This document shows positions 8,761 through 63,971 of a DNA stretch of 64,000 nt, piece by piece. Numbering within the stretch: the stretch's first letter is position 1; each line of letters opens with the position of its first letter. The notes under the pieces were generated by a model. That model was not told the origin of the DNA. It worked only from the letters and a program-made list of their open reading frames with translations, and searched no databases. This stretch comes from Nanobdellota archaeon (GTDB lineage: Archaea; Nanobdellota; Nanobdellia; Woesearchaeales; JACPBV01), in NCBI GenBank assembly GCA_018813685.1, contig JAHJAV010000018.1, forward strand, positions 9,576 through 73,575, in the 5' to 3' direction. The translations under genes were made by a program, and so were the position numbers.

Positions 8761-8789
8761 TTTATCAAACCTCCTAAGTTTTATTTAAG

Positions 8790-8814
8790 ATTGATATAAT
8801 CCCCCAATTGATTA
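8790..8814 (-). terminator. GC hairpin between leuB and ilvC
   Basis: ccccc aattgatta ggggg stem-loop in the 88-bp leuB-ilvC spacer. Possible terminator or attenuator. Confidence 0.3.
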
Positions 8815-8848
8815 GGGGGTAGTTTATTATATTTAAAATTAATTGTTT

Positions 8849-9970: not shown

Positions 9971-9974
9971 TTTG

Positions 9975-11737: not shown

Positions 11738-11738
11738 T

Positions 11739-12386: not shown

Positions 12387-12387
12387 T

Positions 12388-12645: not shown

Positions 12646-12742
12646 AGTATATTTGAGTTATTGGAAAGTATATAAAAGTATGTTGTACCTAAAGGGTACA
12701 ACTATCGAAAGATTTATATCTATGCCCATATTTTTAGGCACC

Positions 12743-13474: not shown

Positions 13475-13490
13475 ATAAAAGACTTTTGTA

Positions 13491-14660: not shown

Positions 14661-14704
14661 TGTCCTATCACCTATTTCCCAATATGAACTTTATTTTTGT
14701 GATT

Positions 14705-15193
14705 TTAACCTCTAGAAACTGCTGTTACGCCAGTTCTTGAGACTTCTTTAACTCCAAATTGCTTCATGAGCTCTATGAATGAGTCTATCTTATCAGGATC
14801 CCCTATGAGCTCTGCAGTTATTGTCTTTGGAGTTATGTCTACTATCTTTGTCTTGTAGATCTTAGTGTATCTTAAAATCTCGTCTTTTGCTTTTTTGTTT
14901 GAGATTGCTACTTTAATCAGGCAAAGTTCCCTGATTATAGATTTGTCTTCTGTCATTTCCATTACTTTGATTGTGTCAATCAGTTTGTTTACCTGTTTTT
15001 CAACCTGTTCAAGTATCTGATCATCCCCTATTACAGTTATAACCATCTTACTGACTCCTGCTTTTGTGGTTTTTCCGACTGTGATTGTATCTATGTTAAA
15101 GCCTCTTCTTGCGAACATTCCTGCTATTCTTGTCAGCACCCCTGGCTGGTCTTCAACAAGCATTGAAATTACGTGCCTTTTTTCTTTTGTCAT
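14705..15193 (-). CDS. ilvH: acetolactate synthase small (regulatory) subunit
   Basis: ACT domain MLVEDQPGVLTRIAGMFARRGFNI. Confidence 0.85.
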   Translation of the reverse strand: MTKEKRHVISMLVEDQPGVLTRIAGMFARRGFNIDTITVGKTTKAGVSKMVITVIGDDQILEQVEKQVNKLIDTIKVMEMTEDKSIIRELCLIKVAISNKKAKDEILRYTKIYKTKIVDITPKTITAELIGDPDKIDSFIELMKQFGVKEVSRTGVTAVSRG

Positions 15194-15254
15194 TACAAAT
15201 CACCTCCGGTGAGTTCTAATGGTCTCAAAAAATAAATTTTTTGAACCATATTTA

Positions 15255-16967: not shown

Positions 16968-17003
16968 TTTATCACCATTGTTATTGTTGTTGTTGGTTTT
17001 TCT

Positions 17004-19112: not shown

Positions 19113-19772
19113 ATGTTAACAAAAAATGTACTTTTATATGAAGAACCGATAAAGAGAATACTCGGAAAAGTAGAGTTAGAAACCATATATAAAAAAATTG
19201 AGGGAAAACAATTGAAACAGGTTGAGATGAACTATCTTTCAAGATCTATCCGCCCTAAATTGATTGCTGCAAGAATGATCTCACAAGAAAATATACTTGA
19301 AAGAATCAACAAAAGAACAAGAAGAGAACAATCTTTAATAGAATTTAACCTATCTAATTATGGATATGAGATGATTTCTATAAAACGCAAAAAGCATAAA
19401 AAGTTACCTATTGAAGAACTGATAGTTGAAATAATCATTAAGTATCCTTCGGCACGTTTTATAGAGGCTATACCTTTTTTGATTATAAAAAATAAAATTG
19501 GGGGATTTAAACTTCTTGAATTAGCCACCAGGTACGGAATCAAGAATAAGGTAGGATATTTAATTGAAACTGTATTTATGATAAGGCCAATTCCACAATT
19601 AAAGGGATTGCTAGATTATTTAATAAAGAATAAAGAAAATGAAATGTCCTTTCTTGTTGAGGGAGATGAGGAATTCCTTAGGAAAACTTCCCCTGAGAGG
19701 GTTAGGAAATGGAATCTGCTTGGAAGATTTTTTGATGAGGACTTTAAAAAACTTGCAAAGGTGTACCTATGA
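19113..19772 (+). CDS. hypothetical protein, upstream partner of a nucleotidyltransferase
   Basis: 219-aa ORF overlapping the next gene by 4 bp (ATGA). Confidence 0.4.
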   Translation: MLTKNVLLYEEPIKRILGKVELETIYKKIEGKQLKQVEMNYLSRSIRPKLIAARMISQENILERINKRTRREQSLIEFNLSNYGYEMISIKRKKHKKLPIEELIVEIIIKYPSARFIEAIPFLIIKNKIGGFKLLELATRYGIKNKVGYLIETVFMIRPIPQLKGLLDYLIKNKENEMSFLVEGDEEFLRKTSPERVRKWNLLGRFFDEDFKKLAKVYL

Positions 19773-20266
19773 TAACCAAAGATGACCTTATAGCCTGGCT
19801 TAAATGTGTGGATAAAAAGCTTAAAAGAAAAATGACAATTATAGCAGTGGGGGGCACTGCAATGACTTTGATAGGGCTAAAATCTTCTACAAGGGATGTT
19901 GATTTTTGTCTCCACTCAGATGACAAAAACGAATTCAAGAAGGCAATTGATAACAAGTTTATAGTAGATTTATTTGTAGACGGCTATATTTTTTCAGAGC
20001 AATTACCCCCTGATTATCTAGAAAAATCTACCAAACTAATCGAGATGGAGCATATTGAATTAAGGGCATTGGACAAGGCAGATATAATAATAACCAAGGC
20101 AGCCAGGCTAAATGCTCGGGATGAAGAAGATATCAAGGCCCTAGCCAAATATGTAAACAAAGAAGAGCTTATCAAAAGATTTAATGATGTATTAGAAACA
20201 TATGCTGGAAACGAAGAAGATTTTAAATATCATTTTTCATTAATTGTCAAGCGGTTTTTTAATTAA
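19769..20266 (+). CDS. minimal nucleotidyltransferase (Pol-beta superfamily)
   Basis: VGGTAMTLIGLKSSTRDVDF matches the hG[GS]x9-13Dh[DE]h nucleotidyltransferase motif. Confidence 0.5.
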   Translation: MITKDDLIAWLKCVDKKLKRKMTIIAVGGTAMTLIGLKSSTRDVDFCLHSDDKNEFKKAIDNKFIVDLFVDGYIFSEQLPPDYLEKSTKLIEMEHIELRALDKADIIITKAARLNARDEEDIKALAKYVNKEELIKRFNDVLETYAGNEEDFKYHFSLIVKRFFN

Positions 20267-33677: not shown

Positions 33678-34005
33678 TAGGCAGGGCTGGAATAAGCCAC
33701 CTTTTGTCAGATGATTTCCATCTGTCTTAGCATTTAACTAAGCGTTTTAAAAACTTGCACCGGTCAGGTCTCGCCGTTTCATCCATTCCTCTTAGAGCGT
33801 CTGTCGGTTAACTCAGTTACGTTGCCGTAACCTTCTCGACTTTCATCCTCCTAAAAGGGGGTCTCGTTTCTGTGCGGTTGCCGCACATTGCTGCACCTTC
33901 TTTATGAAGTGACCATAATAGCCAGAGGCTATTGGTGGGTGGACTTTCCTCAGTTCGTACTTACATTGCTGTAAGGAACCGTTAGCTAAGTACCTTCCCT
34001 GCCTA
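33678..34005 (-). ncRNA. rnpB: RNase P RNA
   Basis: Minus strand has GAGGAAAGUCCACC (CR-I / P4 5' strand, plus 33941-33951) and ACAAAAGGUGGCUUA (CR-V / P4 3' strand, plus 33691-33704); they pair with the conserved bulged U. P1 terminal helix aggcaggg/ccctgcct. GC-rich island about 328 nt. Confidence 0.7.
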
Positions 34006-36675: not shown

Positions 36676-39600
36676 TTATACATCATCTATAAGATCCTGC
36701 GCTGTTTTGTCTTCTATTTTCTGTTCTTGTTCTGTTTTGTCTTCAATCTGCTTTTCTTCTTTGGCTTCTATTTTCTGTTCTTGTTCTGTTTTGTCTTCAA
36801 TCTGCTTTTCTTCTTTGTATTCTATTTCCTGCTCTTTTTCTGAATTGTCTTCTATCTCTTTCTCTGGCTCTGAATTGTCTTCAATCTCTTTTGGCTCTTC
36901 ATAGGAGATTTCATTAGCTGGTCCTGATTCTTCTTTAGTAGCCTCTTTTCCATTAACTTCCTTTGGCTCTTCTCCTAAGATTTTTGCTGCTGCAACTACT
37001 TTATCCCCTGATTCAAGCTTCATCAATGTCATGCCCTGTGTTGCTCTGCCTATTATTGAAATTCCTTTTGCAGGAGTCCTTATGGTAATTCCGTTCTTGC
37101 TTATGAACATGACTTCGTCTTCTTCGGTTATTGACTTAACTGAAACTACATTACCGTTTCTTTCTGAGCAGATTATGTTCTTGACACCTACCCCCCCTCT
37201 GCGAGTAAGCCTATATTCAGAAACCGATGTTCTTTTTCCAAAGCCGTTTTCAGTTATGGTCAATAATGCCCTTGTATCATCTGCAACTACCATGCCTATA
37301 ACATAATCATTATCTCTTAATGTAGCCCCTCTTACGCCTTTTGCAGACCTCCCTGTTGACCTTACATCTGTTTCTTTGAATCTTACTGCTGAGCCGTTTT
37401 TTGTAGCTATGATTATCTCTTTTGTACAATCTGTCTTTACAACTCTTATCAATTCATCATTATCTTCAAGAGTGATTGCAATAATGCCTCCTTTTCTAGG
37501 GTTAGAGTATGCTGAAAGCTCTGTCTTTTTTACTGTTCCATTTTTAGTGGCCATTATCAAAAATTCATTTTCTTTAAATTCTGATATTGGAGTAAATGCA
37601 GAGATTTTTTCATCCTGGCTTAACTGAAGTAAGTTAACTACTGATTTTCCTAAAGCCTGTCTTGAGCCTTCTGGTATGTTATAAACTTTTAACCAATGAA
37701 CACGTCCCTTATTTGTAAAGAACAATATGTAAGAATGGGTGTCTGCAATAAAGATGTCTTCTACAAAGTCCTGCTCTTTTGTTCCGGCAGCAATTATTCC
37801 TTTTCCGCCTCTTCTCTGCTGCTTATAGGTGCTTAATGGCTGTCTTTTTACATAGCCTGAATGAGTTATTGTGATGACTGTTTTTTCTCTTTTGATCAAA
37901 TCTTCCATCTCAAATGAATTTAATTCACCACCTGTAATCTCTGTCCTTCTTTCATCTCCGTATTGTTCTTTTAATTCAATGAGCTCTTTTTTGATTATGT
38001 CAAGGATCTTTTTTTCAGAAGCCAATATTGAGGTAAGCTCACCTATTAATTTTATTAAGTCAGAATGCTCTGTCTTTATCTTTTCCTGCTCAAGTGCTGC
38101 AAGCCTCTGCAGTTTCATATCCAAGATAGCCAATGACTGCTTTTCTGTTATGCTTAAGCTTGTCTGTAATACCTGCCTTGCCTGCTCAACAGATCTGCTT
38201 TCTTTGATAAGTTTTATAGTTGTATCTATGTCTTTAAGTGCAATCAATAATCCCTCTAATATATGTGCCCTGTCTTTTGCTTTGTTTAGGTCAAATTCTG
38301 TTCTTTTTCTTACAACTTCTTTCCTATGCTCGACAAAAAAATAGATAAGCTGTTTTATGCCTAATGTCTTTGGCTCATTGTTGACTAAGGCAACTGCCAT
38401 TATTCCAAATGTTTCCTGTAATCTTGTATGTTTGTATAATTGATTTATGACTATGTTTGAGTTTGAGTCTTTTTTTAATTCTATAACAATGCTCATTCCC
38501 GTTCTATCTGATTCATCCCTTATATCACTTATACCCCTTATCTTATCATCATTTACTAATCCCGCTATCTGTTTGATAAGTTCTGATTTATTTACCATGT
38601 AAGGGATCTCTGTGATTATGATGCGGTTTTTTTCTGGCTCAATCTCTGCTCTGCCCCTTACAATTACCTTTCCTCTGCCTGTTTTGTAAGCATGAACTAT
38701 TCCTTCTCTTCCGCAGATTATTCCGCCTGTTGGGAAGTCAGGACCTTTTACATGGTTCATTATTTCATCGACTTCTAAATCAGGATTTTCTATCAAAGCA
38801 ATTGTTCCATTGACCACTTCAGTCATGTTATGGGGCGGTATGTTTGTTGCCATGCCGACTGCGATGCCTGAAGAGCCGTTTATCAGAAGATTAGGAACTT
38901 TTGAAGGAAGAACAACTGGCTCTTCTAATGAGCCATCGAAGTTTGGCATAAATTGAACTGTGTTTTTGTCTATGTCCTGCAAAAGTTCTTCTGAGAGTTT
39001 TTTTAGACGAGCTTCTGTATATCGCATAGCTGCTGGACTATCGCCATCTACCGAGTTATGAACAAAGATTCCGGCAGCTAAAGCAAAATTGTGTGTGCCC
39101 TTGATTGTCAAATCATAAACATCTTCTAATTTTGGAAGAAGTTCTATTCTTAGAATTTTATGGTTGTAGGCTTTTGCTTGTTCAACCATGTCTGAGAAAT
39201 TATCAAAGTATTGTAATGCTGTGTTTATTTTTGGAAAGCAATTATTGGTTCTTTCTTTTCCATAGATTTCAGGTGTTATTTCTTCATATTTGTGAGTGAT
39301 TGAATTGACAAAACACAATATCTTGCTTTTCATTACTTTTTCTTTGTAAGAAGGATCCTGCCATTTTTTCTTCAGGGAAACGGCTGCTTTTTCTGCCAGT
39401 TCATTCATTAAGTTGGAGTTTTCTTTTAGTCTCTGCTTATTATTTTCTTTTATTGCTTTAATGATTTTTTCACGGAATTCAAGATCTTGCCATTGTGAAA
39501 CCGCTTTTTTGCTGTGAGCTTCTTTTATTGATGGATCTTCCCATAACTTTTTTGCCATCTTACTGAAATGGTTTTTAGGGAATTTGGACCTATATCCACT

Positions 39601-40968
39601 ATCTTTCCAGAGTTTTTTTGAATTTTCACTTCTCTCTTTCTTGTATTTTTTGTTTTCCCACCTTTCTTTTGATTTCTTGGAGATAAGGCCTCTGCGCCCT
39701 GGTCTTGCCCAGATTTCTTTAGATTCTTCTGAAGTGAATTTCCTTAATGAAGGATCATTTTTCTCCCATCTTTTTTTCATTTCTGCTGATTTTAGTTTGC
39801 TCATCTTTTGATGATATTCTTTATTACCCCATAGCTCTTTCAATCTCCTGCTTTTTTCTTCTCTTAATTCTGGATGTTTTTTTGAGAATTCAATATTGAT
39901 TTCACTCAATCTTTTACTCGTATGTTCCCTATAATCCTTATTCTTCCAATTCTTTTTGTTTCTTTCAGAAAGTTTTTTAGAAGCTCTTTCTTTGTTATCT
40001 TTATTAGACCAGAATCTTTTTCTTCCTTCTGCTATTTTTCTGCGATATTCTGGATCTTTGTGTAATTCTGAAGCATGTCCTGCATGCAATGACCAATGAT
40101 CTTTCCATTTTATTCTTTTTATGTTGTCTGGGTTGTTGTTTAATTTGTTAAAATCTATATGGTGTCTTATTCTTCCTGCATTCTTTGCATATATTTCATT
40201 TTTAATATTCCAATTATCTGCTAGTTCATGTATTGGTGCCCATTTGTTTGTGTTTGATTGATGGAGCATTGGATAACCAACAAGTGCTGGCTTTATGTTA
40301 TCTTTTTTAGTAGATGGCCTAATGTTAAGGGGCATCAAGGAATCTTCTGGTTTTAGGTATTGTGCTTGTTTATACTCGCCATTTCTTAGCATGAACCTAT
40401 GGTCTAAAGTGCACTTTATTCCTTCATTATTGTCTAAAACAACCTTTAGGATTTTTTGGCTTTTCTTTGTGAGTCTAGGGTTTTTTATTTCAGCTATTTC
40501 TATGCTTCCCTCTTTATTAATAGTGTAAGTATAGTTCTTTTTGCCTTTTTTATGCTCTTTTATTAACTCTTCAAAGCTTAGGTTTCTACCATCTGTTAAG
40601 GCTATTTTAGTATCTTTTGTGAAACAACCAAAATTACCCTGACCATCAATTAGAGTATATCTTAAAGAGAATGGCTGGACCATCCTAGCTAATGAATCAT
40701 AAACAGCAACATCGCCGTGAGGGTGATATTTTCCTAAAACTTCTCCTACAATCCTGGCGCTTTTTTTGAATGGCTTGTTATGATACATACCCATATCATT
40801 CATTGCGAAAAGAATCCTTCTGTGAACTGGCTTTAAGCCGTCTCTTACATCTGGCAAGGCTCTTCCAACTATGACAGACATAGCATAATCTACATAAGAC
40901 TGCTTCATCTCTTCTTCTATCTCTCTGGGCAGTATCTGCTCTCCTTTTGATTCGATTTTTTCAGTCAT
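36676..40968 (-). CDS. gyrA: DNA gyrase subunit A interrupted by a 524-aa intein, with an acidic EK-repeat C-terminal tail
   Basis: N-terminal GyrA motifs up to QGNFG. The extein resumes with SVDGDSPAAMRYTEARL and the GyrA beta-pinwheel follows. Confidence 0.9.
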   Translation of the reverse strand: MTEKIESKGEQILPREIEEEMKQSYVDYAMSVIVGRALPDVRDGLKPVHRRILFAMNDMGMYHNKPFKKSARIVGEVLGKYHPHGDVAVYDSLARMVQPFSLRYTLIDGQGNFGCFTKDTKIALTDGRNLSFEELIKEHKKGKKNYTYTINKEGSIEIAEIKNPRLTKKSQKILKVVLDNNEGIKCTLDHRFMLRNGEYKQAQYLKPEDSLMPLNIRPSTKKDNIKPALVGYPMLHQSNTNKWAPIHELADNWNIKNEIYAKNAGRIRHHIDFNKLNNNPDNIKRIKWKDHWSLHAGHASELHKDPEYRRKIAEGRKRFWSNKDNKERASKKLSERNKKNWKNKDYREHTSKRLSEINIEFSKKHPELREEKSRRLKELWGNKEYHQKMSKLKSAEMKKRWEKNDPSLRKFTSEESKEIWARPGRRGLISKKSKERWENKKYKKERSENSKKLWKDSGYRSKFPKNHFSKMAKKLWEDPSIKEAHSKKAVSQWQDLEFREKIIKAIKENNKQRLKENSNLMNELAEKAAVSLKKKWQDPSYKEKVMKSKILCFVNSITHKYEEITPEIYGKERTNNCFPKINTALQYFDNFSDMVEQAKAYNHKILRIELLPKLEDVYDLTIKGTHNFALAAGIFVHNSVDGDSPAAMRYTEARLKKLSEELLQDIDKNTVQFMPNFDGSLEEPVVLPSKVPNLLINGSSGIAVGMATNIPPHNMTEVVNGTIALIENPDLEVDEIMNHVKGPDFPTGGIICGREGIVHAYKTGRGKVIVRGRAEIEPEKNRIIITEIPYMVNKSELIKQIAGLVNDDKIRGISDIRDESDRTGMSIVIELKKDSNSNIVINQLYKHTRLQETFGIMAVALVNNEPKTLGIKQLIYFFVEHRKEVVRKRTEFDLNKAKDRAHILEGLLIALKDIDTTIKLIKESRSVEQARQVLQTSLSITEKQSLAILDMKLQRLAALEQEKIKTEHSDLIKLIGELTSILASEKKILDIIKKELIELKEQYGDERRTEITGGELNSFEMEDLIKREKTVITITHSGYVKRQPLSTYKQQRRGGKGIIAAGTKEQDFVEDIFIADTHSYILFFTNKGRVHWLKVYNIPEGSRQALGKSVVNLLQLSQDEKISAFTPISEFKENEFLIMATKNGTVKKTELSAYSNPRKGGIIAITLEDNDELIRVVKTDCTKEIIIATKNGSAVRFKETDVRSTGRSAKGVRGATLRDNDYVIGMVVADDTRALLTITENGFGKRTSVSEYRLTRRGGVGVKNIICSERNGNVVSVKSITEEDEVMFISKNGITIRTPAKGISIIGRATQGMTLMKLESGDKVVAAAKILGEEPKEVNGKEATKEESGPANEISYEEPKEIEDNSEPEKEIEDNSEKEQEIEYKEEKQIEDKTEQEQKIEAKEEKQIEDKTEQEQKIEDKTAQDLIDDV
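36712..36830. repeat. tandem ~57-bp nucleotide repeat (x2) encoding the EK-rich GyrA tail
   Basis: ctattttctgttcttgttctgttttgtcttcaatctgcttttcttctttg occurs twice in tandem. Confidence 0.6.
39055..40626 (-). mobile_element. intein in gyrA with HNH homing endonuclease and NUMOD3-like Lys-rich repeats
   Basis: Starts with Cys after GNFG and ends VHN before Ser (CAT AAC TCG at 39060-39052). Internal RIRHHIDFNKLNNNPDNIKRIKWKDHWSLH is an HNH-like motif. There are about 8 tandem copies of a ~22-aa K/S/W repeat. Confidence 0.8.
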
Positions 40969-49193: not shown

Positions 49194-49291
49194 CCACTTG
49201 CCACCATATTTTGGCAAGTGCGAGAAGCTTTCTAGAGGCTAAATTCTGCCATTATAGCGGTTTTGAATATAGCACTTGCCACTTGCCAACC
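49194..49291. repeat. cluster of four cacttgcca motifs (one hairpin pair plus a tandem direct pair)
   Basis: ccacttgccacc ... tggcaagtg (inverted, 49196-49226) and gcacttgccacttgccaacc (49271-49290). Confidence 0.45.
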
Positions 49292-49344
49292 ATCCCCGTA
49301 AGGTATTTAAAGAAGAGAGCCTTATCGGCATTTGGTGGATATTA

Positions 49345-50187
49345 ATGGAACAAGATAAAGCATTGGTTGTTTTTCAAGGTAAGAAAATAAGGCGAACTTG
49401 GTTTAATAATGAATGGTGGTTTGCAGCAGTTGATATTATAGCTGCAATAACTGAATCTAAAGACCCTGCCGGCTACCTTAAGGATATGAGGAGAAGAGAT
49501 GAAGGATTTGCTGAAGGGTGGGGGCAGATTGCCACCCCCCTTTTGATTGATACTGTTGGAGGCAAACAAAGTGTTAATTGCGTTTCTGTAAAGGGAGCAT
49601 TTAGGTTAATTCAGTCTGTACCTAGCCCAAAAGCAGAACCATTCAAGCTATGGCTGGCTCAAGTCGGTTATGAAAGAGTGCAGGAAATAGAAAATCCTGA
49701 GCTGGCCCAAAAGCGCATGAAGGAAATCTATAAGCAAAAGGGCTATTCTGATGATTGGATAGAAAAAAGAGTCAGGGGAATTGCAATAAGAGACGAATTA
49801 ACAGATGAATGGAAGAAGAGAAAAGTAGAAACAGATAAAGAGTTTGCAATACTTACAGCAGAAATCTCTAAAGCGACATTTGGAATGACTCCAAGCGAAT
49901 ATCAGAAGCTTAAAGGGTTGAAAAAGGAGAATTTAAGGGACCATATGAATGATTTAGAGCTGATTTTTACAATGCTGGGTGAAAGAGTTACAACAGAAAT
50001 AACCAGAACGAAAGATGCGCAGGAATTTGATGAATGTTCAGAAGCAGCTAAAGAGGGCGGCGAAGTTGCAGGAAATGCCAAAAAGGATGCTGAAAGAAAG
50101 ATAGGAAAGCCCATAACAACCAGCCAGAATTACCTTGAAGGACAGGAAAAGGGTAAAAGAAAACAGATAGAGAAAAAGCCAGAGTAA
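49345..50187 (+). CDS. Bro-N domain protein (phage anti-repressor / DinD-like)
   Basis: LVVFQGKKIRRTWFNNEWWFAAVDIIAAIT ... VKGAFRLIQ is Bro-N-like. Composition is more GC/Ala-rich than neighbours. Confidence 0.6.
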   Translation: MEQDKALVVFQGKKIRRTWFNNEWWFAAVDIIAAITESKDPAGYLKDMRRRDEGFAEGWGQIATPLLIDTVGGKQSVNCVSVKGAFRLIQSVPSPKAEPFKLWLAQVGYERVQEIENPELAQKRMKEIYKQKGYSDDWIEKRVRGIAIRDELTDEWKKRKVETDKEFAILTAEISKATFGMTPSEYQKLKGLKKENLRDHMNDLELIFTMLGERVTTEITRTKDAQEFDECSEAAKEGGEVAGNAKKDAERKIGKPITTSQNYLEGQEKGKRKQIEKKPE

Positions 50188-53047: not shown

Positions 53048-54076
53048 TTAAATATTTTTGGTTTTAAATGTAAATTTACCTTTATCCATTATCTTTTTTC
53101 CATCGACAAAGATTGTTGGCTGCTTTATCAGCCCATCTATGTGCAAGGGAACTTTAACCTTGCCTCCAAATCCCATATTATTTCCTAAAGCAATGTGGCA
53201 GGTTCCAATAACTTTTTCGTCTTCAAGCATGTTTCCTATGATTTTTGCGCCTTTGTTTGTGCCTATGCCGAATTCAGCAAGGTTTCTTGATAATCTTCCT
53301 GCTTTGTTTAACAGAGAGTTTAGTTTTTTTGCTGAACTTCCACCTGTTATGTTTAAGGCATAGCCTTTTTTGAATGTTATTGTAATGGGTTTGTCAACTT
53401 TTCCTATGCTTCCGACAGAGCCATCTATCATGCAGATGCCTTCTGCGCTTCCTTCTAATGGCGCAATGAACGCTTCTCCACCCGGCAAGTTTCCATAGTC
53501 TCCTTTTTTAGTAAACAAACCAGAGCCTCTTCCGCGGGTTTTTCTTGAGCTTATGCTGAAAGTGAGGTTAGTTCCTTTTTTGCTTGATATTTTTACTTTG
53601 TTTCCCTTATCTAGTATGTCTGCTAATCTTTTAAGTAGATTGAGCATTTCTTTATAATTGATATTTATTGCTCTTTTTAATGTGGCTTCTAATATGTTAG
53701 GTAATGTAGCGATCCTTGCTCCTTTTTTGCAAGCATTTTTCCTTGCTTTTGTATGGGTAAGGGATTTTGTTGTTATCATTATCTCAATATTGTAGTTTAA
53801 CATTTGCTTTGCTGTTTCACTAGGGGGTTCTTCTCCATTTACATTACCTACAGGGATCTCTATTGAATCTATGTTTTTTGTGAATAATACCCCTATCTTT
53901 AGAAATAAATTTACCAAGCTCTTCTTATTCTTATCAAAAACAATAAGCAGTTTTTCATTATTCTTAACTGCTAAATTGGTCTTGAATATCTGGAAGATAG
54001 CTTTTTCTAAAGGTTTAAATGATGAATTTACCTTTTTTGTGTATCCAGTATTTTTTGCCATTTTCATCAACACCAT
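53048..54076 (-). CDS. M29-family aminopeptidase (AmpS/aminopeptidase T-like)
   Basis: GNLPGGEAFIAP, GTCHIALG and VPLHIDG motifs. Confidence 0.65.
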   Translation of the reverse strand: MVLMKMAKNTGYTKKVNSSFKPLEKAIFQIFKTNLAVKNNEKLLIVFDKNKKSLVNLFLKIGVLFTKNIDSIEIPVGNVNGEEPPSETAKQMLNYNIEIMITTKSLTHTKARKNACKKGARIATLPNILEATLKRAININYKEMLNLLKRLADILDKGNKVKISSKKGTNLTFSISSRKTRGRGSGLFTKKGDYGNLPGGEAFIAPLEGSAEGICMIDGSVGSIGKVDKPITITFKKGYALNITGGSSAKKLNSLLNKAGRLSRNLAEFGIGTNKGAKIIGNMLEDEKVIGTCHIALGNNMGFGGKVKVPLHIDGLIKQPTIFVDGKKIMDKGKFTFKTKNI

Positions 54077-55790
54077 ATATATCTAATTCCTGCCTTGGTG
54101 AGTCTATAACAATGTCTGTATGGTAATATGTTGCCCTGTCTGCTTCAAATCCAGAGCCTAAAGCGATATGAATCATGTTTGCTATCTTTTCATTTACAAT
54201 AAGATAATTGCAAAGCTCTGCCTTAGGATTAGTGTTTATTGCAAATTCACCTATGTTTGTGAAGTTTATTTTGTTCACTTCTATGATCTGTTTTGGCAAG
54301 GATTTTTTCTTTTCCTGATTGATTAATTTATCCCATGCTTCTTTCTTTTTTTGAGCGAATTTAGCCAAGATCTTTTTTGGCCCTTTGAGCACCTTGTAAT
54401 TGTTACCTAAACAATTGACAATCATGGGGTCTTTTCTGTTTAGAGTGTAGCTCTGGTCAAGGCTGATGACTACATCACCTATAAACTGGCCTTTGATGTA
54501 TTCGGGGGTTACAAATGCCTCTCCACCAGGGATATTAGCCATTGTTCCTGCTTTTATCCCCTTTTCTTTTAAGTACCATGGATTGATTAAGTATCTTGTT
54601 TCTACATCAGAGCCTCTAAAGATTCTTCTTTTTCCTTCTTTTGATACTAAGCCTACTTCTATGTTTGTCTGGTAATTGCCAAATTTCTTTCCTATTACTC
54701 GAATTATTTTGCATTTATGAGTAATATTGATTATCTTGTCGTCTCTTTTCTTCATCTTGATCCAATCTATGTTGCTTGTCTTGATGAATATGTCAATAGG
54801 CAATGTTTCTGTAAAACCGATTCTGGCTTTTGGATCTCTTGGATCTAGTGCTGTCTGAGGGTAATAATCTAATTTGTAAATCATCTGGCCAGGGCTCAGC
54901 CATCTTGTTTTTTTATCTTCAGAAGGATAACCGATACATTCTCCAAAGTAATGCCTCCCTGCATATCCTTTTCCATGGATAGCGAATACTGCGCTTGCTA
55001 TTGTTTTCATCCTGCTTATTTTTAGAAGGTCTGATAATTTTTTGTATACTTTGAATATTGGTTCATCTACATTCCTGCATAGTTCACATCCCAATAAGGT
55101 TGATTTTAGGTCAGAGATTCTTTCTGGAGTGTCCATCTGGGAGCTTTTTGATGTAGAAGCACCCATGCCTGTAATCTGGGATTTTATAGATTCCATCATA
55201 GCATAGCTTATCTGGAATGAATCGAGATAATCCTCTATCGGCAAGCCCAAATCTTCTTTTTTTCTTAAAAGATCAAAGCCAATGCTTACTTTTTCTGAGT
55301 TTTTTAGGTCGTAAACCTGGCTGAAGATAACTTTTGCTGTTGTTATCAATTCATTTCTTCTGTATTCTGTCATCCATCCTGTTTTGTAAGGCAATGAGAA
55401 TGAGCCTTCAAATGAGTTCTTTTTTGCATACAGCCTTATCTCTGGTTCTTTGAATATTGATCCTATCTTTCCTTCGCATTTCTTGTTGATTATGCTGATA
55501 AAATCATTTAGCGCTTTTGTTTTATTGTTTTTAATGCCTTTGTTTAGTTCGCTGCAGCATTTCCATACATCTTCTAATACTGGCAAACTTTCTGACTTCT
55601 TGTTAATTGCCTGAACATTTATTTCGCCACCTAATTCATGAATTGCCTTGGATAATGGGGCTAAAGAGTAGAATGCCTGCTTTTGACTTATGTCCAGAAC
55701 TATAAGTGCTGTCTTTCCTTTTATGTTTCCTAATGTTTGTTTATATTTGTTTGCTGCTTCATCAAGTTTTTTCAAGCCGTATCTTTTCAT
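54015..55790 (-). CDS. large M29-like aminopeptidase paralog (591 aa)
   Basis: C-terminal MANIPGGEAFVTP ... HIALGSGF ... YHTDIVID resembles the M29 catalytic core. Long N-terminal extension. Confidence 0.55.
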   Translation of the reverse strand: MKRYGLKKLDEAANKYKQTLGNIKGKTALIVLDISQKQAFYSLAPLSKAIHELGGEINVQAINKKSESLPVLEDVWKCCSELNKGIKNNKTKALNDFISIINKKCEGKIGSIFKEPEIRLYAKKNSFEGSFSLPYKTGWMTEYRRNELITTAKVIFSQVYDLKNSEKVSIGFDLLRKKEDLGLPIEDYLDSFQISYAMMESIKSQITGMGASTSKSSQMDTPERISDLKSTLLGCELCRNVDEPIFKVYKKLSDLLKISRMKTIASAVFAIHGKGYAGRHYFGECIGYPSEDKKTRWLSPGQMIYKLDYYPQTALDPRDPKARIGFTETLPIDIFIKTSNIDWIKMKKRDDKIINITHKCKIIRVIGKKFGNYQTNIEVGLVSKEGKRRIFRGSDVETRYLINPWYLKEKGIKAGTMANIPGGEAFVTPEYIKGQFIGDVVISLDQSYTLNRKDPMIVNCLGNNYKVLKGPKKILAKFAQKKKEAWDKLINQEKKKSLPKQIIEVNKINFTNIGEFAINTNPKAELCNYLIVNEKIANMIHIALGSGFEADRATYYHTDIVIDSPRQELDIYGVDENGKKYWIHKKGKFII

Positions 55791-55800
55791 TTTTACCTCT

Positions 55801-56877
55801 TTAACTGATTATTTTGAGTTCTTTGCTGATTTTGGTAAGGATCTCCACCTTGCCCATAGTCAAAAGAACGCTGTCTTCTATTCTTATTCCATAATTTTTT
55901 AAGTAGATTCCCGGCTCTATTGTGAATACTGAATTTTCTTTAATCTTGTTTTTTGAGTCTTCGAAAAAGCTTGGAAGTTCGTGAATCATTATACCTACTC
56001 CATGGCCTAATCCATGTGTAAAGAATTTTGCATGTTCTCCAAGATTATCTTTTACGTGTTTGTAGACTTTTGAGCATTTCATATTTGGCTTTATTATTGC
56101 GATTGCTTTTTTTTGTACATCTAAAAGTTTGTTGTATATGTTTACTTCGGTTTCTGAGGGATTTCCAAGATAGATTGTCCTTGAGGTATCTGTACAATAG
56201 TTTTTGTACCTTATACCAAAATCTATAAGGCAGAATCCTTTTTTCAGTTTTGAATCATCTGTTGTGTAATGTACTTCGCTGGAGTGTATGCCTGAAGCGA
56301 CTATTGTAGGGAAGGAGATTTCACAGCCTCTTTTTTTTGTTTCATATTCGAGGAAAGCAAGAACCTCTGATTCTGCCTTAAACTGTTTAAATTGGCTGAA
56401 GCATTTTTTTAGAATTTCGTCTGAGATTTTGCACCCTTTTTTTATTGTGTTTATTTCTTCTTGTGTTTTTTGCTCTCTTAATCTGTACAGTTCTTTTTGT
56501 AAGTCAATCAACCTGCATTTTCCAATTTTCTTGATTAATACGTCTTTGGTTGATAGGGTAAATTCTGATTTGTTTATTCCGATTCTCTTTAGTTTTATCT
56601 TTTGTTTTTTTGCTATGTCCTTTATTGTCTCAAAAAGCCTCTTTTTTTTGCTGCTGGTGTAAACTTTTAAGCTGCGTTTCTTTGCTGAGCTGAGTTCTCC
56701 TTCTGGAACTACCAGAAATGGTTTTTTGTTTTGAGGTATGATTATAGCACCTATGCCTGGGTAACCTGCGAAATAGAGCATGTCTGATATGAAGTTGCCA
56801 TAACCTAAGTTAAGTGAGAGGAAGACGTCTATCTTCTTTTTTCTTAATATAGCCTGAAATTCGCTTATTTTGGGCAT
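55801..56877 (-). CDS. M24-family Xaa-Pro aminopeptidase / prolidase
   Basis: HGLGHGVGIMIHE metal-binding motif. Start set at MPKISEF. Confidence 0.75.
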   Translation of the reverse strand: MPKISEFQAILRKKKIDVFLSLNLGYGNFISDMLYFAGYPGIGAIIIPQNKKPFLVVPEGELSSAKKRSLKVYTSSKKKRLFETIKDIAKKQKIKLKRIGINKSEFTLSTKDVLIKKIGKCRLIDLQKELYRLREQKTQEEINTIKKGCKISDEILKKCFSQFKQFKAESEVLAFLEYETKKRGCEISFPTIVASGIHSSEVHYTTDDSKLKKGFCLIDFGIRYKNYCTDTSRTIYLGNPSETEVNIYNKLLDVQKKAIAIIKPNMKCSKVYKHVKDNLGEHAKFFTHGLGHGVGIMIHELPSFFEDSKNKIKENSVFTIEPGIYLKNYGIRIEDSVLLTMGKVEILTKISKELKIIS

Positions 56878-56919
56878 AATGAAAAAATATATAAGCAGAG
56901 TATATTTAAATATTATGTT

Positions 56920-58134
56920 ATGGAGAAAAATATGCTTAAAAACGGGTTTACAGTAGTGTTGGAAAAGAAGCCTACTGAGACAGTAACTATACAGGCAAGT
57001 GTAAAGACTGGCTCTAATAATGAAGATAAAAGGATTAATGGAATATCTCATTTTATAGAGCATATGCTGTTTGAGGGCACTTGCAAGCGGCCTAATTCCC
57101 ATATAATTGCCAATGAGATAGAGAGTTTAGGTGGGGAGCTTAATGCGTATACTTCAAATGAAAGAACGTGCTTTTATGTAAAGGTGCCTAAGAATCATTT
57201 TGACAAGGCATTGGACATAATATCTGACTTAGTACAGAATTCTATATTTGATGCTAAGAATGTAGAGAAAGAGAGAAAAGTGATATTGAAAGAGATAGAC
57301 ATGCATAAGGACGAGCCAAGATTCCACCAGTGGATATTGTTTTACAGGATTTTATTCAAGAAACATCCTGCTGGGCTGGCGCCTTATGGCACTGTTGATG
57401 CTGTGAAGAAGATGACGCGAAAGGATTTATCGGAGCATTATCATGCTCATTATGTCCCTAATAATATGATATTGTCTGTTGTTGGGGATTTTGACAGTAA
57501 GGCGCTGGGCAAGATAAAGATAAATTTTGAAGGTTTTAAGCAAAGGGATTTGTGTTTAAGGAAAGAGATAGTTGAACCTAATAAGGATAAAGTTGAGGTT
57601 TTGAAAGAGAAACGGGATATATTGAGTTCTTATATGGTTTTGGGGTATAGGGCTGTTTCTCGCCTGGATAAAGACTCTTATGTTCTGGATGTTATCAAGT
57701 CAATATTAGGGAGGGGGCAATCAGGTAAGATATTTGATGAGATAAGGAATAAGAGAGGGTTAGCGTATGAAGTTGGAGTTCATAATGAGCCATGCAGTGA
57801 TTATGGTTTTTTTGCTGTTTATCTTAATACTGACAAAAAGAATATACCTAAAGCGATTTCACTTATTTTGAAAGAGTTTGATGGGCTGCAGAGATTATCT
57901 AAGAAAGAGCTTGAAGAAGCAAAAGGATTTCTGATAGGGCAGCATATATTAAGCAATGAAGATACTAGAGACCTAGCAGATGAATTGGGTTTTTGGGAGA
58001 GTATTAAGGATTCGAAGCTGCTTGATGGTTATCTTAAAGAGATTGAGAAAGTTAGTCTGAATGATGTTGCCAGAGTTGCTAAAAAGTATTTGACGAAGAA
58101 TTATGCTTTGGCTGTTGTAGAACAGTCTAAATAA
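56920..58134 (+). CDS. M16-family zinc peptidase (pitrilysin/insulinase-like)
   Basis: HFIEHMLFEGT (HxxEH inverted zinc motif). Confidence 0.8.
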   Translation: MEKNMLKNGFTVVLEKKPTETVTIQASVKTGSNNEDKRINGISHFIEHMLFEGTCKRPNSHIIANEIESLGGELNAYTSNERTCFYVKVPKNHFDKALDIISDLVQNSIFDAKNVEKERKVILKEIDMHKDEPRFHQWILFYRILFKKHPAGLAPYGTVDAVKKMTRKDLSEHYHAHYVPNNMILSVVGDFDSKALGKIKINFEGFKQRDLCLRKEIVEPNKDKVEVLKEKRDILSSYMVLGYRAVSRLDKDSYVLDVIKSILGRGQSGKIFDEIRNKRGLAYEVGVHNEPCSDYGFFAVYLNTDKKNIPKAISLILKEFDGLQRLSKKELEEAKGFLIGQHILSNEDTRDLADELGFWESIKDSKLLDGYLKEIEKVSLNDVARVAKKYLTKNYALAVVEQSK

Positions 58135-60020: not shown

Positions 60021-60216
60021 ATTAGAGTTATGAAAAATAATTTAGTATTTAAACTTTGGCGTTTTGTTAAGTGAATTATAAAAAATAGTAACACTTTTAT
60101 AAGAGTATGATTTTATTAGGGGTATGCACAGTAAATACAGCCACAAACTATCAGAGAGTAAATATCTGAAGAGAATATATTCTTTAGTCAGTTATAGCTC
60201 CCCACTTAAAAGATCC

Positions 60217-61515
60217 ATGAGCGGGTATGAGATGGAGTTTACGTTAGTGGATGATAGAGGGGATGTATCCAACAGATCTGAAGAGATTATAAATACGTGC
60301 AAGGAAATCAATAAGAACTTTCCAATATCTAAGGAAGTCGGAAAAAATATGATTGAAATTGCTGCCTTACCATCTACAAAGATACAGAAGACAGCACTCT
60401 ATTTTATAGACAATATCCAAAATGTGCAGACCATATGCGCTGAAAAGGGGCTTTCGTTACTTCCCCTGGGCACTTACCCTGGCAGCTTCAAGGAAAAGGT
60501 ATGGAAAAAGAAAAGATATATTTATCCTGCTAAAGTGATTGGTGATAAGAAGTATTGGTATTATTACTCGCACTGTTATGGGTTCCATTACCATTATTCA
60601 CTCCCTAAGGGCATGTTTGATCATAAGAATAAATTTCTTAATGTACATATCAAATCGCGAATTAAAAAGACACTTATTGACAGCTATAATCTTCTTATCG
60701 CTGCTGATCCTGCACTTACAACATTTACGCAGTCATCTCCTTTTGAGTCTGGAAAGTACTATGCAAAAGACACGAGAGTGCTATTCTTAAGGGGGGGCAA
60801 AAAGCTTAAGTTTGATGGGTTGTACTCTAATATGCAGTTGATGGGCGGCCTGCCCCCATACAAACAAACACTATCTGATCTTATTTCAACATTAAACAAG
60901 AAAGATAAGCGCTTCAAAAAGATGTTAATAAAAAAGGGTGCACCTAAGTCCCTAATAATGGAAAAGGACACGCTTGACTTTGTATGGAATCCAGTAAAGA
61001 TCAATAGACTTGGAACTATAGAACAGAGAGGTATGGACACAAATCACCTAAACATATGCCTGGGGGCTAGTGTGATGATCAAATTTATCCTTAGGGCAAT
61101 CCAGCAGGAATTCTATCATGTCATACCTTCAGATGTTGGATTAAAGGAACCTTTTAAGCTGGAAGGCAATGTAATATTTATACCACCCCATACCCATGTC
61201 AGGAATGTATTGCAGCGTAAATCAAGCTATAGTGGACTTGCAGATAATGAAGTCTATAATGTATGTAATCGCTTTTATAAGCTGGCAAGAAAGTTGGTAT
61301 ATAAAAACTACCTCCCTACTTTAAATGCCATAAGGGATATGATTGATACAAGAAAGACAGTATCTGATATGATAGTTAACTATGTTAAGAGGAAAGGGTA
61401 TTCTACTGATTCGGTAATTCCAAGAGAGATATCAAGGCAGATTGCACTTCTGCATGTGAAGAAGATGAATAGAGATATCGAAAAGACTAAAAAACTATAT
61501 GAGGATATTGTTTAA
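60217..61515 (+). CDS. GCS2-family carboxylate-amine ligase (gamma-glutamylcysteine synthetase-like, YbdK type)
   Basis: YEMEFTLVDDRGDV N-terminal signature. Start set at MSGYEMEF. Confidence 0.65.
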   Translation: MSGYEMEFTLVDDRGDVSNRSEEIINTCKEINKNFPISKEVGKNMIEIAALPSTKIQKTALYFIDNIQNVQTICAEKGLSLLPLGTYPGSFKEKVWKKKRYIYPAKVIGDKKYWYYYSHCYGFHYHYSLPKGMFDHKNKFLNVHIKSRIKKTLIDSYNLLIAADPALTTFTQSSPFESGKYYAKDTRVLFLRGGKKLKFDGLYSNMQLMGGLPPYKQTLSDLISTLNKKDKRFKKMLIKKGAPKSLIMEKDTLDFVWNPVKINRLGTIEQRGMDTNHLNICLGASVMIKFILRAIQQEFYHVIPSDVGLKEPFKLEGNVIFIPPHTHVRNVLQRKSSYSGLADNEVYNVCNRFYKLARKLVYKNYLPTLNAIRDMIDTRKTVSDMIVNYVKRKGYSTDSVIPREISRQIALLHVKKMNRDIEKTKKLYEDIV

Positions 61516-61516
61516 T

Positions 61517-62443
61517 ATGAAAGTAGGAGTTTGGCTGCCATTTAGGGAAAAACTGACAAGTGTCGGTGTTGAACATCCAGGGTATCTATTAAAAGAAGTA
61601 AGAGATAAGATAGTAAAGGCTCTTGAATCTGAGAAAAATATAGAACTTTTTACTAATCTGGATTTCAGGAAAGCTATAGTCCATAATGGTTCTGTTTACC
61701 TTGATGGATTCTGTTTTGATGATCTGGATGTTTTTATCTGGTTTGGTGAGTTGGGAAGAGGATCAAAAAGGATGTATCCTATCGAGATTCTGAAAGCCAT
61801 ATCAAACAAATGCAAGGTAATCAATAATCCAATTGCTTATGAAATTGGGTTGGATAAATACTTATCGTTAGAGCTTCTAAGAAAGAATGGAATCCTTGTG
61901 CCTGAAATAATGCTTATTTCACAGGATGGAGTGGAGGCTGCCAGAGAGATATTCAAAAAATGGAAAAAGGCTGCAATAAAGCCAAGGAATGGATCGTATG
62001 GAATCGGAATGGTTTATGTAGAAGATGAGCAAACTTTTGTTGACATTCTCGACTATGCAAGCAGAAATGGGGTGCATTACATCGAGAAGTTTGTACCTAA
62101 TAATATGGAAGAATGGATTGGAGTCAATGTTGTAAATAATAAGATAATATACGGCTATGGCAAAGAGAAGTCACAGATAAAAAACTGGAAAGTGCAGGAC
62201 AGGAGCAGGCAAGGTGGGCACATGATCTTAAAAAGGCCGAATGAGGAGCAAAAGGAAATCGCTTTGAAAATCGGAAAGTTAACTGGCCTAGACATATATG
62301 GTGTTGATATCATAAAAGGACTGGACAATAAGTATTATGTTGTTGATGTGAATACTTTTCCAGGGCTATACCCTGAGCTGCTCGAGAAAGCAGAGAATGA
62401 TATGTATAAAGAGATTGCTGAGATTGTTAAGAGGAAGAGATAG
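61517..62443 (+). CDS. ATP-grasp ligase (RimK / glutathione synthetase-like)
   Basis: KPRNGSYGIGMVYVE and DIYGVDIIK..DNKYYVVDVNTFPG ATP-grasp motifs. Start 2 bp after the GCS2 stop. Confidence 0.7.
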   Translation: MKVGVWLPFREKLTSVGVEHPGYLLKEVRDKIVKALESEKNIELFTNLDFRKAIVHNGSVYLDGFCFDDLDVFIWFGELGRGSKRMYPIEILKAISNKCKVINNPIAYEIGLDKYLSLELLRKNGILVPEIMLISQDGVEAAREIFKKWKKAAIKPRNGSYGIGMVYVEDEQTFVDILDYASRNGVHYIEKFVPNNMEEWIGVNVVNNKIIYGYGKEKSQIKNWKVQDRSRQGGHMILKRPNEEQKEIALKIGKLTGLDIYGVDIIKGLDNKYYVVDVNTFPGLYPELLEKAENDMYKEIAEIVKRKR

Positions 62444-62459
62444 GATTTTTGATATGGAT

Positions 62460-63971
62460 CTATAGTTTTGCAATTATTTCTGCAGCTATTCCAAAGACAA
62501 CATTCCAGGAAGCAGCAGCTAAATACCTGAATTTCAATGGAACTTTGTTCTGGATAATATAATTGACTCCAAAACCTACTGGGAGGTAACCTGCCCATGA
62601 AACTGCCCCTTTTATAGTACCTTCTTTCCACCCCTGCTCAATAAAACCCTTAATGTCAAACTTAGAATTCTTGAATATAAGAAAGCAGTAGTGCTGAACC
62701 TGCAAAGGCAGCTGTGAAAACCTTTCCAATGTTGTCCTTCCAAGAAATTTCAAGTGTTTTTCCAGCTGGCTACGATATGTATCGATGGGGATTGCCTTAT
62801 CTATCAATCGATAAAGATAAGGAGTCTGAAGAGCATACATCAGGCCAATCAGCATTGCAGTCATAAGCTCTCCCTCACTAAGATCCTTACCCATAATCAT
62901 TTTTTTAAATAATACATTGGAAGTTGCAAATGCAGCCATATTAGTAGTAATATTAGTAATCAATGTATCATTTATCTTTTTATCAGAGTACCATCTTAAG
63001 AAAGCAACCCAAACCTTTTTATGGGCTTCAAGAAAATCTGTATATAAGTCATACTCATTAAGAAGATAATCAACTGTCTTTTTTTGATTTTGGTATTCCC
63101 CAACACCTAAACCTATCCTAAATCTTTTTCTGGAATCTGGAACTTCGAATATAAATGAGTTTACTCTTTTCCTTACTGCACTCCTTAATGAAGCTTCATT
63201 TACACTAATCAAATATCTTACCCTTACTGCAGATAACAACAATGCATTTTTTCTATCTTTTAATATGTTATATTCAGAGTATGATCTGATCAATGCTTTT
63301 ATTGCAGAACTTTTGTCCTTAATATCATTTTCAGCCACATATTTACCCACTGCAATATCAATCTTGGATTTATTATATCTCATAAACCTATCAAACTTTT
63401 CCTTAAATGAGAACCTATCATTTATATGGGGCCTGAGTTCTTGGTCAATTACAAATTCTCCCTGGATGAAGTTCCCGGAAAATGGGTCTTCGACAAGCAG
63501 AGGTTTTGGTCTTTCTAAGGCATAGGGAGTTAAAAAACCATCCTTAACCCTGGGGTAAAGAAGGTCATAGAACCCTTCCTGGATAGACTGAAGCCTTAGG
63601 AGTATGCTTTTTTTTATTTGGCGTATTGAGTCATGCCTGGATGCTTTCTTTCTGAATTTAGTGAGTAATTGCTGTTCGCCTTGAGGCCCAAACAAAAGGC
63701 TACGCTGTTCTTCCATTAACTCAAGAAGTTCCTTTCTTTTTTTCAAAACTGCCCAATTAGTCTTACATTCCCCAAAAAGTTTTAGCTGTTTATCTAAGTT
63801 TTCATGTAGTTGTTGTAAGATCCTATGAAGTTCGAACAATTCTTGCTGTTCGGATTCATCAACTTCAAATCGGCTTATTCCTCTTCTGATTTCTTCTGCT
63901 TTTTCCAGTATATGTTCTTCATCATAAATGGCTTTTTTTACTGCATATACTGATTTTCTGAGTTTATTCAA
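62460..63971 (-). CDS. hypothetical protein (503 aa) with hydrophobic C-terminus
   Basis: Long ORF with coding-like composition. No motif recognised. Confidence 0.45.
   Translation of the reverse strand: MNKLRKSVYAVKKAIYDEEHILEKAEEIRRGISRFEVDESEQQELFELHRILQQLHENLDKQLKLFGECKTNWAVLKKRKELLELMEEQRSLLFGPQGEQQLLTKFRKKASRHDSIRQIKKSILLRLQSIQEGFYDLLYPRVKDGFLTPYALERPKPLLVEDPFSGNFIQGEFVIDQELRPHINDRFSFKEKFDRFMRYNKSKIDIAVGKYVAENDIKDKSSAIKALIRSYSEYNILKDRKNALLLSAVRVRYLISVNEASLRSAVRKRVNSFIFEVPDSRKRFRIGLGVGEYQNQKKTVDYLLNEYDLYTDFLEAHKKVWVAFLRWYSDKKINDTLITNITTNMAAFATSNVLFKKMIMGKDLSEGELMTAMLIGLMYALQTPYLYRLIDKAIPIDTYRSQLEKHLKFLGRTTLERFSQLPLQVQHYCFLIFKNSKFDIKGFIEQGWKEGTIKGAVSWAGYLPVGFGVNYIIQNKVPLKFRYLAAASWNVVFGIAAEIIAKL

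Follow-up and report, generated by a model that had tools for sequence, protein, structure and literature searches.

The ligase gene pair and its boundaries

The DNA studied here, hereafter called the window, is a stretch of 64,000 nucleotides from a Nanobdellota archaeon (contig JAHJAV010000018.1 of GenBank assembly GCA_018813685.1) with a G+C content of about 36%. The best matches of its proteins are found in metagenome-assembled genomes of the Nanoarchaeota/Woesearchaeota type (DPANN). The subject of this study is a pair of adjacent genes, ORF A and ORF B (Table 1), which are predicted to encode a carboxylate-amine ligase and an ATP-grasp ligase, respectively. Both proteins have 100%-identical entries in the databases. 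Upstream of the pair, the gene for tyrosyl-tRNA synthetase lies in divergent orientation, and the gene downstream, which encodes a membrane protein of 503 amino acids (aa) without family match, is convergent. ORF A and ORF B therefore constitute an isolated two-gene unit.

For both genes two start codons are available. A first-pass annotation, made from the sequence alone, had placed the start of ORF A at 60217, which would yield a protein of 432 aa, whereas a start at 60124 yields 463 aa. When 25 homologues of ORF A were aligned, the motif PLKRS proved to be nearly invariant just before the MSGYE sequence that begins with Met32 (position 60217), and most of the homologues are 440-470 aa long. 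Because of this conservation and these lengths, ORF A probably starts at ATG 60124. ORF B could begin at 61517 or at the upstream ATG 61499. Its homologues begin with MK(V/L/I)G and the start at 61517 is therefore preferred. With this start the earlier observation that ORF B begins 2 bp after the stop codon of ORF A was confirmed, as the TAA at 61513-61515 is followed by a single T and then by the ATG. A Shine-Dalgarno-like GAGGA is present within the 3' end of ORF A, 11 nt before the start codon of ORF B, which together with the close junction would fit translational coupling of ORF B to ORF A. About 25 nt 5' of ATG 60124 the sequence TTTTATAA could serve as an archaeal TATA box, in which case a leaderless or short-leader mRNA is possible for the 463-aa form of ORF A. 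The results of a scan for bacterial sigma-70 promoters and terminators were disregarded, as this is not applicable to archaea.

ORF A is a divergent relative of YbdK

The first-pass annotation had assigned ORF A to the GCS2 (gamma-glutamylcysteine synthetase 2) family of carboxylate-amine ligases on the basis of the sequence YEMEFTLVDDRGDV. This sequence is present and at the level of the superfamily the assignment was upheld by the Pfam profile GCS2 (PF04107), which ORF A matched with 32.2 bits at a cutoff of 21. The match is confined to aa 34-163 of 463 and covers positions 2-135 of the 291 in the profile. By sequence, no GCS2 match extends into the C-terminal half, where the amine site would be formed. 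Against the NCBIfam models for YbdK and GshA only 26-42 bits were obtained, where the cutoffs are 176-437: the score was 41.5 against 176.4 for the YbdK family (TIGR02050), and 36.6 against 427, 29.9 against 437 and 27 against 371 for the GshA equivalogs (NF010042-44, PRK13515-17).

Among the 25 homologues the residues E36, E38, E71, E78, H155, H157, R218, R223, E300 and R302 are invariant. The acidic, histidine and arginine motifs that, to judge from the family, would be catalytic (ExE, E, H and E-x-R) are thus conserved. In addition, ORF A and its homologues have invariant motifs of their own (SYNLxIAADP, WNPVKIN and EPFKxEGN). A search of the PDB with the family profile of ORF A retrieved only YbdK (1r8g and 1tt4, from E. 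coli and Salmonella, respectively), over the N-terminal 125 residues (E 3.5e-8). When ORF A was aligned with E. coli YbdK by hhalign, the probability was 95.9% and the ExE, E, H, SSP, DxR and GT-E-R motifs of the two proteins were aligned.

The AlphaFold2 model of ORF A has a predicted local distance difference test score (pLDDT) of 92 and a predicted template modelling score (pTM) of 0.91. In a Foldseek search with this model YbdK was again the best match (1r8g/1tt4; E 1e-13; TM-score 0.72-0.77 on the target) with 14-15% identity. It was followed by plant glutamate-cysteine ligase (2gwc; E 3e-12), GshF (3ln7) and E. coli GshA, and at a much lower rank by PafA and Dop (E ~1e-5) and glutamine synthetases. 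This indicates that ORF A adopts a predicted glutamine-synthetase-like fold with YbdK and the glutamate-cysteine ligases as nearest structures. However, ORF A is about 90 aa longer than YbdK, with insertions and a helical C-terminal extension of about 150 aa. Judged by its motifs, ORF A is predicted to be a catalytically intact carboxylate-amine ligase, strongly divergent and closest to YbdK, and by its scores it belongs to no characterised equivalog family.

ORF B is an ATP-grasp ligase of the RimK type

ORF B matched the Pfam RimK ATP-grasp profile (PF08443) with 63.3 bits at a cutoff of 21. The best named NCBIfam model was MptN_Meth (NF040720) with 95.4 bits, far below its cutoff of 350. 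The scores for rimK_fam (TIGR00768; 80.5 bits, cutoff 143.4), CofF (TIGR04443; 39.2, cutoff 300), LysX (TIGR02144; 37.9, cutoff 275.6), RimK proper (PRK10446; 37.3, cutoff 331) and the glutathione synthetase GshB (PRK12458; 16.1, cutoff 408) also remained under their cutoffs. There was no match of ORF B to Pfam GSH-S_ATP and no GshB was present among its 50 best Foldseek folds. A PDB search with the family profile returned RimK first (E ~1e-14) and then PurK, cyanophycin synthetase, ArgX/LysX and Ddl. With the AlphaFold2 model (pLDDT 89) the best Foldseek match was likewise RimK (E ~1e-17; TM-score 0.75-0.79), followed by the graspetide ligase PsnB, ArgX/LysX and DcsG; MdnC was also among the top neighbours. 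The first-pass description of ORF B as a ligase of the 'RimK/glutathione-synthetase type' can consequently be kept for its first half only. By profile score and predicted fold, ORF B is a RimK-type ATP-grasp protein and not one of the glutathione-synthetase type.

Among proteins of solved structure, RimK, the poly-alpha-L-glutamate ligase of ribosomal protein S6 (4IWX, 5ZCT, 7QYS), comes closest to ORF B. Throughout the family alignment the putative ATP/Mg-binding residues K155, E190, D264, D277 and N279 do not vary. The identity to RimK is 18-21%. In contrast to the E-x-N (LEVN) of the consensus of the RimK-like outgroup, the magnesium motif of ORF B is D-x-N (VVDVN), and a conserved N-terminal W-x-P-x-R motif is peculiar to the ORF B family. 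To our knowledge, archaea do not have the bacterial type of S6. MptN and CofF, which cap the tails of cofactors with alpha-glutamate, resemble ORF B in being archaeal members of the RimK family, and they act on small molecules, whereas the genomic context of ORF B is unrelated to methanopterin or F420. When 1.8 billion representative proteins were searched exhaustively, only 27 clusters were found at E <= 1e-30, and the family of ORF B is therefore small. Generic RimK-family proteins and proteins resembling MptN or LysX form the next tier of hits.

The two ligase genes are paired across divergent lineages

Homologues of both proteins were located on other contigs, and the loci that carry them are designated by L-numbers. 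Pairing was judged on archaeal contigs with enough flanking sequence. In nearly every such contig, the exception being L116, a GCS2-like gene adjoins the gene for the ORF B-type ATP-grasp. The GCS2-like gene comes first in the window, L001, L003, L081, L082 and L085, and the ATP-grasp gene in L004, L087, L088, L091, L092, L094, L117 and L118; in several of the paired loci the two genes overlap by 4-14 bp. The adjacency persists, in both orders, across lineages in which the GCS2-like protein is 33-35% identical to that of the window. The identities of the paired proteins to those of the window fall in parallel (71/67% in L001, 55/52% in L003, 45/44% in L004 and 54/35% in L117). In none of the pair loci examined was there a third conserved gene, nor a small ORF for a carrier, a precursor or an S6-like protein beside the pair. 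The adjacency of the GCS2-like and ATP-grasp genes is not due to chance: they form a two-ligase operon that is conserved across divergent lineages. The proposal that ORF A and ORF B make and extend a gamma-glutamyl dipeptide is in this respect supported, since the conserved adjacency, the frequent overlap and the catalytic motifs speak for a functional pair of amide ligases; the scores and the genomic contexts do not support its gamma-Glu-Cys or thiol chemistry.

Several of these loci deserve separate mention. In a close relative (L081:676-1394) about 700 bp of inserted DNA split the GCS2-like gene, with about 13 codons duplicated at the junction; the insertion carries, on the opposite strand, a gene for an IS200-like Y1 transposase (L081:748-1203; PF01797, E 4.5e-11). 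Besides L116, a further exception to the pairing are bacterial-looking homologues of the ATP-grasp from DNA of high G+C content (about 40% identity), which are encoded directly after a CmlA-like diiron beta-hydroxylase (L090:2429-5057; P0142 contig). On one contig of 105 kb an ATP-grasp homologue is located inside a non-ribosomal peptide synthetase (NRPS) cluster that also encodes MbtH, a radical SAM enzyme and a hydroxylase of the JmjC type. Finally, a metagenome contig of 3.2 kb (L115:19-3095; P0131) encodes a sulfotransferase domain fused to an ATP-grasp that is 70% identical to ORF B, directly after a pyruvate-kinase/PUA_2/ATP-sulfurylase gene. The ATP-grasp part of the fusion starts at residue 61. 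This could be a real link to sulfation, a decayed copy or an assembly chimera; with a single contig of this size and the conserved first 60 residues missing, the sulfotransferase link was set aside.

The partners of the GCS2-like ligase differ between clades

Seen from the side of the GCS2-like family a different picture was obtained. This family is widespread in DPANN archaea, with 242 database matches; in a scan of one genome per species 141 matches were confirmed on genome contigs, of which the best 80 were examined for neighbours. The expectation of the first-pass annotation that such a gene would be out of place in a small AT-rich archaeal genome was not borne out by these numbers. A full-length close relative of the ATP-grasp was a neighbour in only 3 of the 80 loci (L001, L003 and L004), with a remnant in L014, and distant RimK-like ATP-grasps (about 26% identity) occur near the GCS2-like gene in L064, L067 and L068. 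The commonest neighbour, found in 35 of the 80, encodes a protein of the N-formylglutamate-amidohydrolase family (FGase), mostly immediately upstream on the same strand. Amidohydro_2 genes are near in 15 loci, and in 8 a glutathionylspermidine-synthase-like, circularly permuted ATP-grasp (PF03738) is encoded nearby. An M20 peptidase gene is next to the GCS2-like gene in L002, and in L001 the GCS2-like, RimK-like and Amidohydro_2 genes are consecutive.

In a neighbour-joining tree of the GCS2-like proteins, a quick distance tree without support values, the type of partner tracks the subclades. The ATP-grasp-linked proteins make up two coherent clades, a basal one in which the ATP-grasp gene precedes the GCS2-like gene and that of the window with its RimK-like partner; in addition there are a large FGase clade and Amidohydro_2 clades. 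The GCS2-like ligase is thus the constant component and the ATP-grasp an accessory ligase in some clades only. All of these partners are enzymes that form or cleave the amide bonds of small compounds of the acyl-amino-acid or peptide-like type. This mosaic suggests that a small amide compound is built, extended and hydrolysed. As far as the literature search reached, such swapping of partners across DPANN clades appears to be undescribed, as the search yielded nothing specific on carboxylate-amine ligases of DPANN archaea or Woesearchaeota or on YbdK in combination with FGase.

Proposed function of the pair

We propose, with a probability that we estimate at roughly 0.55, that ORF A and ORF B are transcribed together as one module, whose two ATP-dependent ligases successively form amide bonds on a small metabolite of the glutamate type. 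If the GCS2-like ligase works like other members of its superfamily, it would activate a carboxylate, most plausibly that of a glutamate, as an acyl phosphate and join it to an amine. The RimK-like ATP-grasp would, as RimK, MptN and CofF do, attach an amino acid to this metabolite at a free carboxylate, in the step that immediately precedes or follows that of the GCS2-like ligase. The amino acid would most plausibly be an alpha-linked L-glutamate, and the product a short peptide or amide that contains glutamate. Elsewhere among the DPANN clades the GCS2-like ligase would instead work together with amidohydrolases (FGase, Amidohydro_2, M20) or with the glutathionylspermidine-synthase-like ATP-grasp. 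A small-molecule substrate is favoured because no conserved small ORF for a carrier or precursor accompanies the pair and because on bacterial contigs homologues with about 40% identity to the ATP-grasp are situated in NRPS clusters, next to a CmlA-like hydroxylase.

The combination of a glutamine-synthetase-fold ligase with an ATP-grasp is a known design. It is found in GshA and GshB and in the fused GshF, where a ligase of this fold and an ATP-grasp form two successive amide bonds. The present pair differs in that ORF B is RimK-type, not GshB- or D-Ala-D-Ala-ligase-type, and in that no equivalog cutoff is reached. Similar operons, in which unrelated amide ligases are paired, often in the company of peptidases or amidohydrolases, are predicted to produce peptide-derived metabolites, and linked ATP-grasp and COOH-NH2 ligases often perform successive ligations, according to the summary that PMC4431377 gives of Iyer, Abhiman, Burroughs and Aravind (2009). 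In the present case both components come from uncharacterised, lineage-restricted subfamilies.

Some of the results weigh against the proposed function. The scores of both proteins are far under all of the curated equivalog cutoffs, so that the analogies apply at the level of the superfamily only. The structurally closest ATP-grasps (RimK, LysX/ArgX and PsnB) act on proteins or peptides. The archaeal contig L116 has the ATP-grasp gene and no GCS2-like gene within 10 kb. Moreover, the ATP-grasp is dispensable in the clade of the window itself, as L002 has lost it and in L014 a remnant of 55 codons is left, and the tree that relates partners to clades is of the quick kind described above. While the families, the intact motifs and the clade-following pairing were observed, the substrates, the order of the steps, the product and the role would all follow by analogy.

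Alternative explanations

A broader possibility, which we regard as tentative and rather unlikely, is that the YbdK-like ligase of DPANN archaea makes a small glutamyl compound that has so far not been described, either a new low-molecular-weight thiol or an anionic peptide osmolyte, which the various clades extend or recycle. A thiol of this kind might be gamma-Glu-Cys carrying an additional glutamate or polyamine; the RimK-like and glutathionylspermidine-synthase-like enzymes would then be the extenders, FGase, Amidohydro_2 and M20 the recyclers, and the pair in the window the extending version. A thiol pathway was also among the routes that the first-pass annotation had in mind. In such a pathway ORF A would be a gamma-glutamylcysteine ligase and ORF B would extend gamma-Glu-Cys to a low-molecular-weight thiol, for example gamma-Glu-Cys-Glu, while in other clades the glutathionylspermidine-synthase-like enzyme would add a polyamine. 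The nearest solved folds of ORF A, which include true glutamate-cysteine ligases besides YbdK, the metal and ATP motifs that it has in common with YbdK, and the PF03738 partner in 8 loci, which recalls GshA followed by GspS, agree with this. Matches of DPANN proteins to the InterPro families of GshA have been noted, and haloarchaea use gamma-Glu-Cys (review PMC7278568). Nevertheless, the distance of ORF A from all GshA and YbdK models and the dissimilarity to GCS2 of the half that would form the amine site argue against a glutathione-like route, as does the lack of GshB character in ORF B. No thiol-dependent partner was found nearby: in the 64 kb that the analysis covered, the ORFs of at least 150 aa yielded no Pfam family of thiol enzymes, and a search of all frames with 60 or more codons for the thioredoxin/glutaredoxin-type motif C[GPA][PYHF]C was negative. 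The commonest partners of the GCS2-like ligases, the amidohydrolases, have no link to thiols, and even for YbdK itself the gamma-Glu-Cys activity is reportedly weak and the physiological role unsettled. No test was in favour of cysteine or a thiol as the specific substrate of the pair. The pattern that had been named as contradicting a thiol route, an ATP-grasp that clusters with MptN/CofF and a GCS2-like protein that clusters with non-thiol ligases, was found about half, since MptN is the best named model of ORF B, at a score far below its cutoff, and ORF A falls in no thiol-ligase equivalog. A thiol product is therefore doubtful. An osmolyte, which would be a special case of our proposal with an anionic glutamyl compound as osmolyte or K+ counter-ion, is improbable as well. 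It would explain why in L004 (4968-10032) the ATP-grasp and GCS2-like genes are followed by those of a Na/H exchanger and TrkH, all on the + strand, and why in L091 (3899-7267) an MscS gene lies 26 bp before the ATP-grasp and GCS2-like genes on the same strand. Genes for MscS, TreT or a Na/H exchanger also adjoin the GCS2-like gene in L037, L039, L048, L061, L062 and L072, and they cluster beside the GCS2-like genes of the Amidohydro_2 clades. However, several of these loci are related by synteny and do not count as independent cases, and Na/H exchangers are frequent anyway, two of them being encoded in the window far from the pair. In E. coli, ybdK is four genes away from the mechanosensitive channel gene ybdG, which is probably a coincidence.

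If the pair added glutamates to a scavenged cofactor, namely a pterin, a folate or an F420-like compound, for instance for its retention in the cell, this would account for MptN being the best named model of ORF B (with CofF also matched) and for the MptN-like or rimK_fam proteins in its next tier of relatives. A serine hydroxymethyltransferase gene is present directly upstream of the pair on the same strand in L117 and L118, and an AdoHcy hydrolase gene downstream in L087 and L094. FGase, M20 and Amidohydro_2 enzymes typically split bonds of the N-acyl-glutamate type, which would fit as well. On the other hand, the MptN and CofF scores are far under those of members (95 against 350 and 39 against 300), no gene for pterin or F420 biosynthesis is conserved beside the pair, and the one-carbon neighbours are restricted to two lineages. 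Moreover, we know of no GCS2-type enzyme that glutamylates a cofactor. We consider this explanation to be quite unlikely. Least probable to us is the modification of a protein or peptide, in which the ATP-grasp would tag a C-terminus or a side chain in the manner of RimK, LysX/ArgX or the graspetide ligases and the GCS2-like protein would be a second, PafA-like tagging ligase. The top structural neighbours of ORF B (RimK, PsnB, ArgX/LysX and MdnC) do all act on proteins or peptides, and PafA and Dop have the same fold as ORF A. But they rank well below YbdK (E ~1e-5 against 1e-13), the small ORF that such a system would have as carrier, precursor or S6-like target does not accompany the pair in any locus, and the bacterial ATP-grasp homologues are part of NRPS clusters for small molecules.

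Other features of the window

The remaining features are collected in Table 1. Just upstream of the ligase pair the DNA is rich in peptidase genes (53048-58134), among which are two tandem M29-like paralogues. An M29-like peptidase was rejected as a partner in the module, as the window and L068, the loci that have one close to the GCS2-like gene, are too few cases. The 503-aa protein encoded downstream has a hydrophobic C-terminal part and matches neither Pfam nor NCBIfam; it was not retained as a member of the module, as a homologue (54% identity) was found in L082 only, upstream and divergent, and in no other locus. Elsewhere, a near-complete set of genes for branched-chain amino acids and leucine is interrupted by genes for a Na/H exchanger, a TrmB-type regulator and a methyltransferase. 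As DPANN-type genomes are generally thought to lack amino-acid biosynthesis, such a set is unusual. The gene for subunit A of DNA gyrase contains an intein (Pfam Intein_splicing, aa 122-637 of 1430). A protein with a Bro-N domain, which is typical of viruses and mobile elements, is also encoded, and a DUF6036 nucleotidyltransferase gene with an overlapping ORF before it resembles a toxin-antitoxin pair.

Table 1. Coordinates of the ligase genes, of other features of the window and of two related loci (positions refer to the window unless a locus is given).
Feature	Position	Strand	Basis
ORF A, divergent GCS2/YbdK-type carboxylate-amine ligase (predicted), 463 aa, DPANN-specific family	60124..61515	+	ORF, Pfam, alignment, fold
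ORF B, divergent RimK-family ATP-grasp ligase (predicted), 308 aa	61517..62443	+	ORF, Pfam, alignment, fold
TTTTATAA, possible archaeal TATA box	60095..60102	+	sequence reading, inference
GAGGA, Shine-Dalgarno-like	61501..61505	+	sequence; function inferred
ATP-grasp C-terminal remnant, ~55 codons	L014:7404-7570		
ATP-grasp absent; M20 peptidase gene after GCS2-like gene instead	L002:7400-8400		
503-aa membrane protein	62460-63971	-	
M29-like peptidase paralogue	53048-54076		
M29-like peptidase paralogue, longer, without own Pfam match	54015-55790		
M24 Xaa-Pro-type peptidase	55801-57102	-	
M16 peptidase	56920-58134	+	
Branched-chain amino-acid/leucine gene set	7759-18578	-	
leuA	17004-18578	-	
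ilvB	15255-16967	-	
ilvN	14705-15193	-	
leuC	10463-11737	-	
leuD	9975-10466	-	
leuB	8849-9970	-	
ilvC	7759-8760	-	
Unknown ORF overlapping DUF6036 gene	19113-19772	+	
DUF6036 nucleotidyltransferase	19769-20266	+	
Archaeal RNase P RNA	33684-33999		
DNA gyrase subunit A with intein	36676-40968	-	
Bro-N domain protein	49276-50187	+	

Implications for DPANN archaea

The genomes of DPANN archaea are reduced and their physiology is poorly known; a dedicated small-molecule thiol or peptide metabolite has yet to be established in this group. That a GCS2-like ligase is kept in many of these genomes (141 genome-contig matches) amid enzymes that form or cleave amides points to a specific metabolite that is important to the cells. 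The pair in the window is an uncharacterised version of the familiar two-ligase design and involves no new principle, and of all versions it would be the simplest to express and assay. The identity of its product would assign a function to hundreds of 'hypothetical' proteins and might clarify the role of the YbdK-type enzymes.

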